Source: a virus (lineage: Duplodnaviria > Heunggongvirae > Uroviricota > Caudoviricetes). Taken from it: DNA of 26,877 bases. Below, in pieces: positions 3,001-6,000 of the stretch (positions are counted from its first letter, which is position 1; each line of letters begins with the position of its first letter). The stretch lies in the IMG/VR virus record IMGVR_UViG_2718218104_000011; one strand, 5' to 3'. The position numbers were made by a program.

Positions 3001-6000
3001 TTACACTATCATTACGACGATCCACATGCATTGAAATTCCATCAGGAGCATATATTGTACCAAGCTTACCTGTAAGTATCATATCCATATCAAGATAGAT
3101 ACACCCCTCCCCGAATGAAATACCGTGATTCTTTGTATTATATGTGCACCTGAATATCTCTCCTGCTTTTAATAAGGCTAAATTTCTGAAGAAATCAAAC
3201 CATGCATGATTTCTTTTCTTTGCATACATAGAAATCAAAGAATCCTGCGCCTTTGAAATTTCCCTCAGCTCTTTCTCTAACAGATTCAACAAGTATTCAT
3301 CTCTTTTGTCTTCAGTTCGTAACCTTTGTTCACATATAATATCATGATAAATATCTGATAGTTTTCTGTCATACATACTGAAGTCAACATCTTCCCGATA
3401 GATTATCATTACATTTTCAAAATCTCGTTCCAATTTTGAAAAAGCAGTCTTTTGGTTGACTGAAAAATCGCCATCAACAAAAATACCTATCATACGATCA
3501 CTCTCTATCCTTGCCGCATTTGTGACATTATCTAAATAGGGATGCTGCTTAGTATTAACTATTGGAACCTCATCTTTCTTATATCGTTCAGGATTAGGTT
3601 CAAACCACTGAAAAAGAATAGGCGTTTTTTCATCAATGACCTTTAACTCATATTCCTTTCCTGCAAAAGAAACCGTTTGACAGGGTGAACTCTGCACTAT
3701 ATTTACTGAGTTATGGAAAGTTGTCCTTATCGGTGAAAGCATTCGTCGTCCTGTTTATCCATATTTTCTTCACAACTAACTCTTTAATCTATTAATTATA
3801 TTGGCATACTCAACCACAAAACCTCCAGCAGTTTTGCCATCTTTGCTTTCCTAACAAACATCCACCGGACATGACAACAAAAACCGGAGCCGGACTCCGG
3901 TTTTGTGAAGCTGTCGGGTTACTTCATCCCGCCAATATTTTCCCACGTCCCGTCAGCACGCAGGATTTGCAGCGGTCTTACCACACACTGTATCTGCTTT
4001 TTATCTGCATCCTGAACCGCCCCGGAAATCCTGGAGACTAAACTCCCTGAGAAAGAGGTAAACAGGATGACTAAAAATACTCGTTTTTCCCCCGAAGTCC
4101 GTCAGCGGGCGATTCGTATGGTTCTGGAAAGTCAGGATGAATATGACTCACAGTGGGCGGCAATTTGTTCCATTGCCCCAAAGATTGGCTGTACGCCGGA
4201 GACTCTGCGTGTCTGGGTTCGCCAGCATGAGCGGGATACCGGGGGCGGTGATGGTGGGCTCACCAGCGCTGAACGTCAGCGTCTGAAAGAGCTGGAACGT
4301 GAAAATCGTGAACTGCGCCGCAGTAACGATATCCTTCGCCAGGCTTCCGCTTATTTTGCGAAGGCGGAGTTCGACCGCCTCTGGAAAAAATGATGCCACT
4401 GCTGGATAAGCTGCGTGAGCAGTACGGGGTCGGACCGGTATGCAGCGAACTGCATATTGCCCCGTCAACGTATTACCATTGTCAGCAACAGCGACATCAT
4501 CCGGATAAACGCAGTGCCCGTGCGCAGCACGACGACTGGCTGAAGAGAGAGATACAGCGCGTATACGATGAAAATCATCAGGTGTACGGTGTGCGTAAAG
4601 TCTGGCGTCAGTTGTTACGGGAAGGAATCAGGGTGGCCAGATGTACAGTGGCACGTCTCATGGCGGTTATGGGACTTGCCGGTGTTCTCCGGGGTAAAAA
4701 GGTCCGTACGACCATCAGCCGGAAAGCCGTTGCCGCAGGCGACCGCGTAAACCGTCAGTTCGTGGCAGAACGACCTGACCAGCTGTGGGTGGCTGATTTT
4801 ACTTACGTCAGCACATGGCAGGGCTTCGTCTATGTGGCGTTTATCATTGATGTGTTTGCCGGATACATCGTGGGGTGGCGGGTCTCATCGTCTATGGAAA
4901 CGACATTCGTGCTGGATGCGCTGGAGCAGGCGTTGTGGGCCCGTCGTCCGTCTGGCACCATCCATCACAGCGATAAAGGCTCTCAGTATGTGTCACTGGC
5001 CTATACGGAGCGACTAAAAGAAGCCGGATTACTGGCATCAACAGGGAGTACAGGCGACTCGTATGACAACGCGATGGCTGAGAGCATCAATGGTCTTTAC
5101 AAAGCGGAGGTAATACACCGTAAGAGCTGGAAAAACCGTGCAGAAGTGGAACTGGCCACACTAACGTGGGTGGACTGGTATAACAATCGACGATTGCTGG
5201 GAAGGCTGGGCCATACTCCTCCGGCAGAAGCAGAAAAAGCTTATTATGCTTCCATCGGAAACGATGATCTGGCAGCCTGAGTTCACAGATAAAACACTCT
5301 CCAGGAAACCCGGGGCGGTTCATCCAGTATCACCACCTGTGTGATTACCCTGTCCTGCTCCGGAATAATGCCATTCTCATCTGACTCCAGAATGTCTGCC
5401 GGTCCCAGTCGCAATTGTGCTGTAAGTGACCGTCCGTTTTCACAGTCATCATGCTTTCCGCAACCGCACAGACTCTGCATAAGCTTTCTCAAAATATTCA
5501 TGTCATTCTCCAGTTCTGCCTGTATCACTGCCCACTTCATCCAGTCCCTTAACATCCTGCCATGGCCCGTCACCAAATCTGACCTGCAAATGCTGAAACA
5601 TCCCCTGAACCTGTGTGGCATCTTTGGGGTCAAGAAAGGTCAGTCCGGTGATGAGCGCACCATCTGTACCCGGGAACCAGCCATAGCTGTTTGTCTCAAT
5701 AATGCTCGCCGGCCCCAGACGAAAACGGATTTGTGTCTCCCCCGGGTCGCCCTTCGCCCCCTGAGGTCCGGTAGCCCCCACCGGGCCAGCCGCACCTGTT
5801 TCCCCTTTCGGTCCCTGCGGTCCTGCCGGACCTGTTGCCCCGGTATCTCCCTTTGGCCCCTGTGGACCTGCCGGACCTGTATCTCCTCCCGGTCCCCGTT
5901 CACCGGTTGCCCCTGCCGGACCGGTGTCTCCACGCTCTCCTTTATCTCCCTTCGGCCCCTGAGGACCCGCGGGACCCGGTTCCCCCTTTGGTCCGGGAGG

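Follow-up and report, generated by a model that had tools for sequence, protein, structure and literature searches.

Organisation of the locus

The window, a 26,877-nucleotide stretch of DNA, belongs to a cargo-rich, defective prophage of the CP-933K/Sp3 type from O157:H7 Escherichia coli, and O157:H7 strain 9234 is 100% identical to it. On its minus strand the window carries the collagen-like side tail fibre gene stf, a small downstream gene that is split by an IS629 element, and a terminator hairpin (Table 1). The stf product matches Pfam PF08400, PF01391 and PF06820 (PGAP CDS WP_000741877.1), its domain architecture agrees with that of EPclA (Ghosh 2012, PMC3368898), and its C-terminus consists of a fibre-type PfC of about 64 residues followed by an 11-residue tail. 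The fibre allele is 21 aa (7 Gly-X-Y) shorter than that of strain TR01 and is found identical in five cattle-hide isolates. Of tfa, only a remnant (1051-1206) is present in the window, and fibres of this kind are without an intact tfa.

The original prediction placed a small open reading frame immediately after the stf stop, and this arrangement is readily seen: the stf TGA (5505-5503) is followed by a single C (5502) and then by the ATG of the small gene (5501-5499), giving TGAcATG, with GGAG at 5511-5508, 6 nt before the ATG. The 13-mer that joins Shine-Dalgarno sequence, stop and ATG is invariant in the related loci having upstream sequence (76/76).

The hairpin beyond the gene is as strong as had been described. 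Its core has an 11-bp stem, lies 14 nt past the small-gene stop, folds with -21.2 kcal/mol (z = -3.8; equal stability in 1 of 200 shuffles) and has the features of a Rho-independent terminator; with an A-run on one side and a U-run on the other it could act in both directions. A simple consensus terminator scan did not list the hairpin at 3880-3904, probably because the stem absorbs the T-run. Of 81 intact copies of the gene, 75 have the terminator 13-14 nt beyond the stop, with variation confined to the loop, and a like hairpin also lies 3' of a divergent orthologue in the locus L086. This terminator closes the late/tail operon, and the nleB2 cargo lies beyond it. The nearby nle genes and the confinement to attaching-and-effacing pathogens could point to a T3SS effector or chaperone. 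This reading was rejected, since the small gene precedes the late-operon terminator, shows coupling to stf and occurs equally in Stx podophages that carry no effector genes alongside it.

Table 1. Features of the stf and small-gene region, in window coordinates
Feature	Coordinates	Strand	Remarks
stf, collagen-like side tail fibre, EPclA type	5503..6756	-	417 aa; PfN, coiled coil, collagen, PfC
Coupling junction GGAGAATGACATG	5499..5511	-	GGAG Shine-Dalgarno sequence within the final stf codons, stf TGA, one base, small-gene ATG
Small PfC gene, 5' part	5323..5501	-	Codons 1-59 and two bases of codon 60, including one copy of the TCC/GGA target duplication (5323-5325; reconstruction); PGAP pseudogene A4C47_RS31280, "missing C-terminus"
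IS629 copy 1 (= IS1203, IS3 family)	4013-5322	+	1310 bp; terminal repeats located, PGAP annotation
orfA of IS629 copy 1	4067-4393	+	Joined to orfB by programmed frameshift (PGAP)
orfB of IS629 copy 1	4390-5280	+
Small PfC gene, 3' part	3919..4012	-	Final base of codon 60 through the stop codon (4009-3919), with the second TCC/GGA duplicate ahead of it (4010-4012); PGAP pseudogene A4C47_RS31275, "missing N-terminus"
Intrinsic terminator hairpin	3880..3904	-	AAAACCGGAGU-CCG-GCUCCGGUUUU; U-run after, A-run before

Disruption by IS629

As had been proposed, the small gene is split by IS629 copy 1 with duplication of TCC, which stands as a direct repeat on both flanks. The element is identical to copy 2 (7407-8716) and to the reverse complement of copy 3 (20163-21472), and its 1310-bp length, its TGAACCGCCCCGG ends, the three identical copies and the target duplication identify it as IS629/IS1203; PGAP labels it an IS3-like element IS1203 family transposase with programmed frameshift. 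Removal in silico of the element and one TCC joins 5501-5323 to 4009-3919 in a single open frame. The predicted frame ending at 3919 is thereby recovered, though it comprises 89 sense codons before the TAA stop (3921-3919) rather than the 88 aa first given. In its interrupted state the 5' part encodes 60 native and 12 IS-derived codons, and IS629 has removed the last 29 residues, leaving the gene in the window dead. RefSeq/PGAP already marks both halves as a pseudogene in strain 9234.

The disruption is without consequence for the cell because the prophage has also lost all head and tail genes. The IS629 junction is common to 5 of 5426 complete genomes, and such insertion sites are useful only as strain markers. 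For the window itself the event is of little importance, being one more IS629 insertion in a decayed O157:H7 prophage and already a RefSeq pseudogene.

Identity of the small protein

Residues 28-89 of the restored protein match the full Pfam PF06820 profile (Phage_fiber_C, PfC; positions 1-64 of 64) with a score of 123.3 bits against a gathering cut-off of 25 (E = 5e-36), and residues 1-89 align with positions 1-89 of the PHROG 576 profile (E = 2e-60); by both E-values the restored frame is well above chance. The PfC of the small protein is 37% identical to the last 64 residues (PfC) of the upstream stf. Judged from this sequence similarity, the small gene, which the original prediction could not place, encodes a free-standing PfC that is paralogous to the C-terminal PfC of stf. 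PF06820 is the sole Pfam match at E <= 1, with no Caudo_TAP or other Tfa family, in keeping with the earlier statement that the protein does not resemble Tfa. No NCBIfam model matches the protein, and a PDB sequence search gave nothing meaningful (top match a 36-residue optineurin chain, E = 0.8). The AlphaFold2 monomer model from a 13-row alignment (pLDDT 55, pTM 0.34) is too poor for structural inference, and the phi24B authors met the same failure of structure prediction for the fibre C-terminal domain.

The 27-residue N-terminal extension is predicted to form a short helix, which is followed by the Cys-containing linker LCGCGK; the third Cys of the extension is not conserved. A lipoprotein or signal peptide, as in a Cor- or Llp-like exclusion protein, was rejected on reading the sequence, where the Cys in MNILRKLMQSLCGC is preceded by only about 5 hydrophobic residues and a proper lipobox is missing.

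Although the gene had been called unrecognised, both gene and family are already known: they are covered by Pfam PF06820, by PHROG 576, by the NCBI PGAP name "phage tail fiber C-terminal domain-containing protein", by the RefSeq pseudogene and by the literature on Sp5 ORF68 (PMC5155283). Names in use for the family are Sp5 ORF68, "gp59" (in the phi24B proteome file), VT1-Sakai H0003 and WP_001024022.1.

Distribution and rearrangement of the module

The gene in the window is an IS629-disrupted copy of a conserved 89-codon gene, the last of the tail operon in EHEC lambdoid and Stx prophages. Searching databases for homologues and uninterrupted copies, the check that accompanied the original prediction, returned intact copies in 698 of 5426 complete E. 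coli genomes, with a median of 11 matching places per genome and about 6800 copies in all, and also in 296 phage records. Fibre-type PfC is found in 697 of the E. coli genomes and likewise in 296 phage records, and the small gene co-occurs one-to-one with PfC-ended fibres. Since intact homologues are this abundant, the small gene cannot be read as a longer fibre gene continuing out of frame, an alternative that had been raised and that these homologues contradict. An intact, 100%-identical copy occupies the same J-lom-stf-ORF-nleB2-nleC locus in strain TR01, and the position behind the fibre is shared by TR01, AU5Stx1 and TL-2011c; the module is found behind siphoviral EPclA and podoviral EPclB fibres alike. 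The Sp5 ORF68 type is recognised by a small gene that is coupled to a PfC-ended fibre gene and is the last before the terminator, as is found in the window.

An exhaustive profile search among 1.84 billion proteins gave 82 clusters at 50% identity, essentially from Escherichia only and mostly fragments and rearrangement chimeras. In a scan of species-representative genomes, the common form matched only E. albertii and a probable contaminant contig, and the divergent orthologue gave no match. This orthologue belongs to the L086 module, which consists of an unrelated 212-aa fibre ending in PfC, an overlapping 79-aa free PfC and a terminator. The 79-aa protein is 59% identical to the small protein of the window, while identity to the respective upstream partner is only 27-37% for each of the two; over the same depth the fibre-borne PfC domains are 38% identical, against 59% for the small-gene type.

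Two rearrangements join the paralogues. In P0063/L084 the fibre collagen run is fused in frame to the small-gene PfC at an 8-nt microhomology (GGGACCGG), and in P0121/L087 a fibre-type PfC is joined to the small-gene N-terminus, this chimera standing between stf and the small gene in a tandem array.

Selection on the small gene

The PfC part of the small gene is under strong purifying selection. Among 53 unique haplotypes from 83 copies its dN/dS is 0.045 at pS 0.13, in a sample that represents the best 80 of 284 loci by protein similarity, whose pairs are non-independent and whose choice pushes dN down somewhat, though 295 of the 296 phage copies show 90% identity or more in any case. Codon variants in this part are 22 synonymous versus 8 non-synonymous (binomial P = 4e-8). 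For comparison, dN/dS is 0.22 over the first 27 codons and 0.23 in the PfC of the fibre, and pS between small-gene PfC and fibre PfC is 0.66.

Product peptides in phi24B virion preparations

The proteome of phi24B virions purified on sucrose gradients includes two peptides unique to the small gene, ADGTWENIGGMK and VITQVVILDADKK, each with 3 PSMs, against 47 for the fibre C-terminal peptide; this is a spectral level at which Bor and Lom were set aside by the phi24B authors as contaminants. Only in gel slice EA1829 (low molecular weight) does these authors' hypothetical fusion entry surpass the fibre, an excess that fits a free protein of about 10 kDa. The junction peptides TGEDM..., TGENDM... 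and MNILK are all absent from the phi24B peptides listed.

Proposed role

On balance, we consider it probable that the family to which the IS629-killed gene of the window belongs encodes an expressed, dispensable and putatively fibre-associated PfC protein. A tail-fibre accessory role had been suggested from gene position, and it is the most reasonable interpretation. The small gene would be translated from its own Shine-Dalgarno sequence and ATG overlapping the fibre stop, and through this coupling the small protein would be produced alongside the fibre at a late stage of infection. The fibre PfC is a small globule that caps the collagen-like side fibre and trimerises alone in vitro (Ghosh 2012, PMC3368898), and from its homology to the small protein the latter is predicted to form a small PfC trimer. 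Such a trimer would associate with the fibre or virion as a dispensable accessory, and we see its role as neither that of a silent DNA cassette, nor of a frameshift extension, nor of an essential chaperone. The 89-aa, PfC-only Sp5 ORF68 is a non-essential late gene: plaque formation and lysogenisation on K-12 are unaffected in the delta-ORF68 mutant, unlike the fibre deletion mutant, which is not infectious (PMC5155283).

A narrower suggestion, which we make only tentatively and regard as possible but doubtful, is that the free PfC protein is a conserved minor virion component, a mini-trimer docking on or beside the collagen-like lateral fibres of Stx/EHEC lambdoid phages and mattering only on natural O-antigen-bearing hosts. 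Its role might then lie, for example, in adsorption, in host range or in keeping progeny off cell debris, which would account for dispensability on K-12 despite a constraint tighter than that on the fibre tip. It would also represent a class of fibre accessory that arose by duplication of the fibre's own head domain and is unrelated to Tfa. As a partner of Stx-phage lateral fibres, the small gene is under strong constraint and is inherited strictly together with PfC-ended fibres, and its peptides are detectable in preparations of virions. The findings would not alter the field's thinking.

Alternative explanations

The strength of selection bears on two alternatives in which the protein itself would not matter. 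Mondal et al. (2016, PMC5155283) put forward the idea of a recombination reservoir, in which the gene is mainly a stored alternative PfC cassette for fibre-tip swaps and its protein product is irrelevant, and the natural recombinants of the two PfC paralogues are as this idea predicts. We nevertheless consider it unlikely: Shine-Dalgarno sequence, ATG and N-terminal extension are invariant or conserved and would be needless for a silent cassette, the dN/dS of the PfC part is tighter than that of the expressed fibre tip, and peptides of the product are detected in phi24B. Moreover, it is very rare for a fibre to carry a PfC of the small-gene type (one cluster among 171 matches), and the paralogue types remain distinct across deep divergence, with no homogenisation. 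It is very unlikely that the gene is a functionless relic, a second copy of the fibre 3' end carried along by the fibre module and kept solely through the youth and frequent recombination of these prophages. The extreme narrowness of the family, the many truncated or fused copies in defective prophages and the lack of a K-12 knock-out phenotype (PMC5155283) would suit a relic, but a synonymous divergence of 0.13 with dN/dS 0.045 is not neutral, the 59%-identical orthologue retains frame, start, coupling and terminator, and, of 84 copies sampled, 82 have an intact frame of exactly 89 codons.

The remaining alternatives concern the fibre and its synthesis. A free PfC could serve as a Tfa-like assembly factor that transiently templates or registers trimerisation of the fibre PfC and collagen in the cell and is not a virion component. 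The gene occupies the position of lambda tfa after stf, behind fibres that here have no intact tfa; it is translationally coupled to the fibre and homologous to a trimerisation-nucleating domain, and the low virion spectral counts could be carry-over. We judge such a role improbable, given that recombinant EPclA folds and trimerises in E. coli without the small protein, as does the isolated PfC (PMC3368898), that Sp5 delta-ORF68 is infectious where the fibre deletion mutant is not (PMC5155283), and that the protein has no similarity to Tfa families. Very unlikely, in our view, is recoding at GAA-UGA-C, where a +1 frameshift or stop bypass would give a minority of fibres a second PfC head. The small gene does lie in the +1 frame, which is open for about 44 codons upstream of the ATG, and the C after the UGA makes for a weak stop context. 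Annotators have considered such products, as in the AU5Stx1 "alternate tail fiber tip" and the phi24B "Fusion_6159" entries. However, Mondal et al. report no frameshift-prone sequence (PMC5155283), the P-site GAA should re-pair poorly, if at all, in +1 (AAU), and the GGAG overlaps the P-site codon and would be too close for prfB-like action. The excess of small-gene peptides is in the low-molecular-weight slice and not in the fibre band, the phi24B peptides listed include no junction peptide, and the GGAG-N6-ATG spacing is ideal for independent initiation.

Comparison with known systems

Sp5 ORF68, phi24B "gp59", VT1-Sakai H0003 and AU5Stx1 atfT belong to the same family as the window gene and are likewise 89 aa and PfC-only. 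Genes of the Sp5 ORF68 type, like that of the window, start 1 nt after the fibre stop and are last before the terminator, and the sequenced Stx-phage copies are 91-99% identical in protein. The window copy differs in being IS629-split and truncated, and its setting is a defective prophage, where it follows a siphoviral EPclA fibre, whereas that of the Sp5 ORF68 type is an active podoviral Stx2 phage. The PfC of the EPclA fibre is the same PF06820 domain of about 64 residues and is, by experiment, an autonomous trimerisation module forming the distal globule (PMC3368898). Unlike it, the small protein (37% identical) is free-standing, has a 27-residue extension in place of the collagen shaft, is without the 11-residue C-terminal tail and evolves more slowly (dN/dS 0.045 vs 0.23).

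Lambda Tfa, T4 gp38 and Mu U are also encoded by small genes just downstream of the side-fibre gene with which they are co-expressed, and some Tfa proteins remain bound to the fibre tip. These proteins have no sequence relationship to the small protein, which instead is homologous to the fibre's own tip and, unlike the Tfa type, seems from the literature to be dispensable for fibre trimerisation and infectivity (PMC3368898, PMC5155283).

A second copy of the fibre end just downstream of the fibre gene is also found in the invertible segments Mu G, P1 C and e14 and in DGR template repeats. A DGR was rejected here, as no reverse transcriptase is annotated in the 26.9-kb window and the PfC copies are only 37% identical (pS 0.66), and so was an invertible fibre-tip cassette of the Gin/Cin/Pin type, the window having no invertase. 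The small gene resembles such stored tips in that the occasional recombinants show replacement of the resident tip to be possible, but differs from them in lying on the same strand as stf with its own Shine-Dalgarno sequence and ATG, in being under strong selection at the protein level, and in having a phi24B homologue whose product peptides are detected.

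Structure of the locus and the IS629 split

The small gene downstream of stf encodes, when intact, a stand-alone Phage_fiber_C (PfC) domain; it is a late gene, coupled, conserved and already known, and the copy here has been killed by IS629. It starts directly after the stf stop, in keeping with the coupling originally predicted, and its splitting by IS629 is borne out by the TCC duplication bordering the element and by the frame restored on removal of IS629 copy 1 and one TCC, where 5501-5323 meets 4009-3919 in a single frame closed by TAA (3921-3919). The predicted end at 3919 is thereby retained, while the length is corrected from 88 to 89 sense codons. 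As interrupted, the gene codes for 60 native and 12 IS-derived residues, and the last 29 residues are lost. Copies 1 and 2 of IS629 are identical at every base to each other and to the reverse complement of copy 3.

Features of the stf/small-gene locus and the surrounding prophage
Feature	Position	Strand or orientation	Details
stf end, GGA GAA TGA	stop 5505-5503	minus	sequence reading
Small-gene start, ATG	5501-5499	minus	one base past stf stop
RefSeq pseudogene halves	5322-5501 and 3919-4017		"phage tail fiber C-terminal domain-containing protein"
IS629 copy 1	4013-5322		1310 bp; interrupts small gene
Direct TCC	4010-4012 and 5323-5325		borders IS629 copy 1
IS629 copy 2	7407-8716; flanks 6816-7394 / 8739-11050		no target-site duplication; AAC / ATC at ends
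IS629 copy 3	20163-21472	inverted	CCC target duplication
stf allele	5503-6756		417 aa
PGAP pseudogene	3810-3917		108 nt; "hypothetical protein, missing N-terminus"
tfa pseudogene remnant	1051-1206		between nleC and nleH1

The strong hairpin noted after the gene is present as an 11-bp stem-loop 14 bases past the stop, with an A-run before and a U-run after, folding at -21.2 kcal/mol (z = -3.8). It is absent from the output of the consensus terminator scan, probably because the stem takes up the T-run. This late-operon terminator is kept in 75 of 81 small-gene copies, with variation confined to the loop, and the small gene is the final gene ahead of it. The PGAP pseudogene, directly past the small-gene stop and overlapping the hairpin, is probably an annotation artefact.

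Identity of the small protein

The gene had been considered unrecognised and impossible to place; it is in fact already known and annotated. Residues 28-89 of its product align with the full length of Pfam PF06820 (123 bits; threshold 25), PHROG 576 ("tail fiber protein"), a profile of 89 positions, is matched by the protein as a whole, and RefSeq names the two halves of the gene. The unlikeness to Tfa was upheld, with no match to any Tfa family in Pfam or NCBIfam. The stf gene encodes a collagen-like side tail fibre in the order PfN, coiled coil, collagen and PfC, which is the "EPclA" architecture of Ghosh et al. 2012 (PMC3368898). Given the PF06820 match and 37% identity to the last 64-residue domain of this fibre, the small gene is, as judged from sequence, a stand-alone paralogue of the distal globule, with a 27-residue extension in front. 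An AlphaFold2 monomer, in which four strands come after an N-terminal helix, was unusable at pLDDT 55.

The stf allele is 21 residues, or seven Gly-X-Y collagen triplets, shorter than its 438-aa counterpart at this locus in O157:H7 strain TR01; collagen length variation in multiples of the triplet was described by Ghosh et al. (PMC3368898). Five O157:H7 genomes from cattle hide (4276, 9234, 2159, 2149 and 1130) share the 228-nt segment encoding its PfC domain at 100% identity. In P0144, a protein of 565 aa, four PfC-like modules, all with the ending ...ILRVRQADGTWKEIPA..., stand in tandem upstream of a collagen run, and the PfC fold may therefore serve in distant relatives as a repeated bead, beyond a terminal cap alone.

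State of the prophage

Over its full 26,877 nucleotides the window shows no difference from E. coli O157:H7 strain 9234 (NZ_CP017446.1, 3735024-3761900), where the prophage, of CP-933K/Sp3 type, lies between ybhC and the nleB2-nleC-nleH1-nleD cargo. The exact IS629/small-gene junction occurs in just five of 5426 complete E. coli genomes. TR01 has an unbroken, 100%-identical small gene (WP_001024022.1) at the same J-lom-stf-ORF-nleB2 locus, as do other O157:H7 strains. IS629 copy 2 links truncated lom straight to gpW-like and terminase genes, and the complete set of head and tail genes that TR01 has from portal to J, ahead of lom, is therefore gone, presumably through an IS629-mediated deletion. 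This prophage is unable to make particles, and the function of the small gene is moot in strain 9234 with its head and tail genes gone. IS629 copy 3 splits the lambda exonuclease gene, and the adjoining bet is also truncated. The tfa remnant, well downstream of the stf/small-gene terminator, points to an earlier stf-tfa arrangement of lambda type whose place was taken by the nleB2-nleC cargo and the collagen-PfC module.

Distribution

Contrary to the possibility, raised beforehand, that no intact homologue exists, 698 of the 5426 complete E. coli genomes have the small gene whole or nearly so (median 11 matching places per genome), and it is present in 296 phage records, nearly all of Stx-converting phages. 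Fibre-type PfC occurs in 697 genomes and in 296 phage records, which divide among organisms in the same way; the two therefore travel one-to-one. The pair follows siphoviral EPclA fibres and also the podoviral EPclB fibres of Stx phages, which are longer.

The family hardly exists outside Escherichia. A profile was searched exhaustively against 1.84 billion representative proteins and gave 82 clusters, mostly fragments, and among species-representative genomes the gene was found only in E. albertii and on one probable contaminant contig. A 725-bp contig of a Xanthomonas pisi assembly (NZ_JPLE01000138.1) carries a copy whose protein shares 94% identity with that of E. coli and which almost certainly stems from contamination with E. 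coli or phage.

Selection and divergence

The sample used to assess selection, drawn from annotated records and viral contigs, comprised 83 copies with 53 different haplotypes at nucleotide level and represented the best 80 of 284 loci by similarity, with non-independent pairs. In this sample the pairwise Nei-Gojobori dN/dS of the small gene's PfC part was 0.045 at pS = 0.13, against 0.22 in its N-terminal 27 codons and 0.23 in the fibre's own PfC. Codon variants of the PfC part were 22 synonymous and 8 non-synonymous (neutral expectation 25%, P = 4e-8). Intact genes of exactly 89 codons made up 82 of 84 occurrences, and the 13-mer GGAGAATGACATG, containing the SD, fibre stop and start codon, was invariant at 76 of 76 loci. 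Among the 296 copies of the phage collection before any filtering, 295 reached at least 90% identity in protein.

A divergent module (L086 110-974, GCA_008387015.1), adjoining nleG- and SopA-like effector genes, pairs an unrelated 212-aa fibre protein ending in a fibre-type PfC with a 79-aa free PfC gene that has its own GGAGG, overlaps the fibre gene by 14 nt and is followed by a similar terminator. Its free PfC is 59% identical to the common small protein and the fibre-borne domains are 38% identical, compared with 27-37% between small protein and upstream fibre PfC in either form. On these identities the duplication is old, with the two copies remaining distinct and the free copy evolving more slowly.

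Function of the small protein

What remains of interest is the function of the family, to which this work adds pointers from selection, co-occurrence and proteomics. An expressed protein with a conserved partner predicts an old, distinct, slowly evolving free copy; a neutral relic does not, and is less likely. Mondal et al. 2016 (PMC5155283), who made in-frame deletions of unknown genes in Stx2 phage Sp5, observed no phenotype of the small-gene knock-out on K-12 and suggested for the gene a possible role as an "intragenomic reservoir" of variation in the fibre. The two paralogues have recombined in nature: in P0063 (L084 4-291, GCA_038404665.1) a fibre collagen run continues in frame into the small-gene PfC across the 8-nt microhomology GGGACCGG, and P0121 (L087 2697-3246, GCA_005381265.1), the reciprocal kind of product, joins the small-gene N-terminus to a fibre-type PfC within a tandem stf/chimera/small-gene array. 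Such recombinants are rare, with one cluster each. A silent cassette fails to predict the distinct old copies and slower free copy; this explanation is less likely.

A recoding fusion with the fibre is also less likely. Mondal et al. (PMC5155283) reported no frameshift-inducing sequence fusing the small gene to the fibre (ORF67). The homologue of the window gene is represented in the proteome supplement for sucrose-gradient-purified phi24B virions (10.64898/2026.04.10.717836), whose search database contained hypothetical fibre/small-gene frameshift fusions; the main text of this 2026 preprint does not mention it. Two peptides unique to the small gene, ADGTWENIGGMK and VITQVVILDADKK, with 3 PSMs each against 47 matches for the fibre C-terminal peptide, appear there as part of a hypothetical entry, "Fusion_6159_FS1 - Spike or just gp59?", and no junction peptide is among those listed. 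The "fusion" entry exceeds the fibre entry in one gel slice only, EA1829, of low molecular weight and also containing a 74-aa protein, which fits, as weak evidence, a free product of about 10 kDa; the spectral counts are comparable to those of proteins that the authors treat as contaminants.

One phage record labels the gene "alternate tail fiber tip". The tail-fibre accessory role originally suggested is likely: the intact protein would be made together with the fibre and would be an accessory that the phage can do without, associated with fibre or virion and having a conserved partner. A transient Tfa-like assembly role is less likely. In the work of Ghosh et al. (PMC3368898) the fibre folds without any helper and its PfC domain trimerises alone; the small protein would be predicted to trimerise like other PfC domains.
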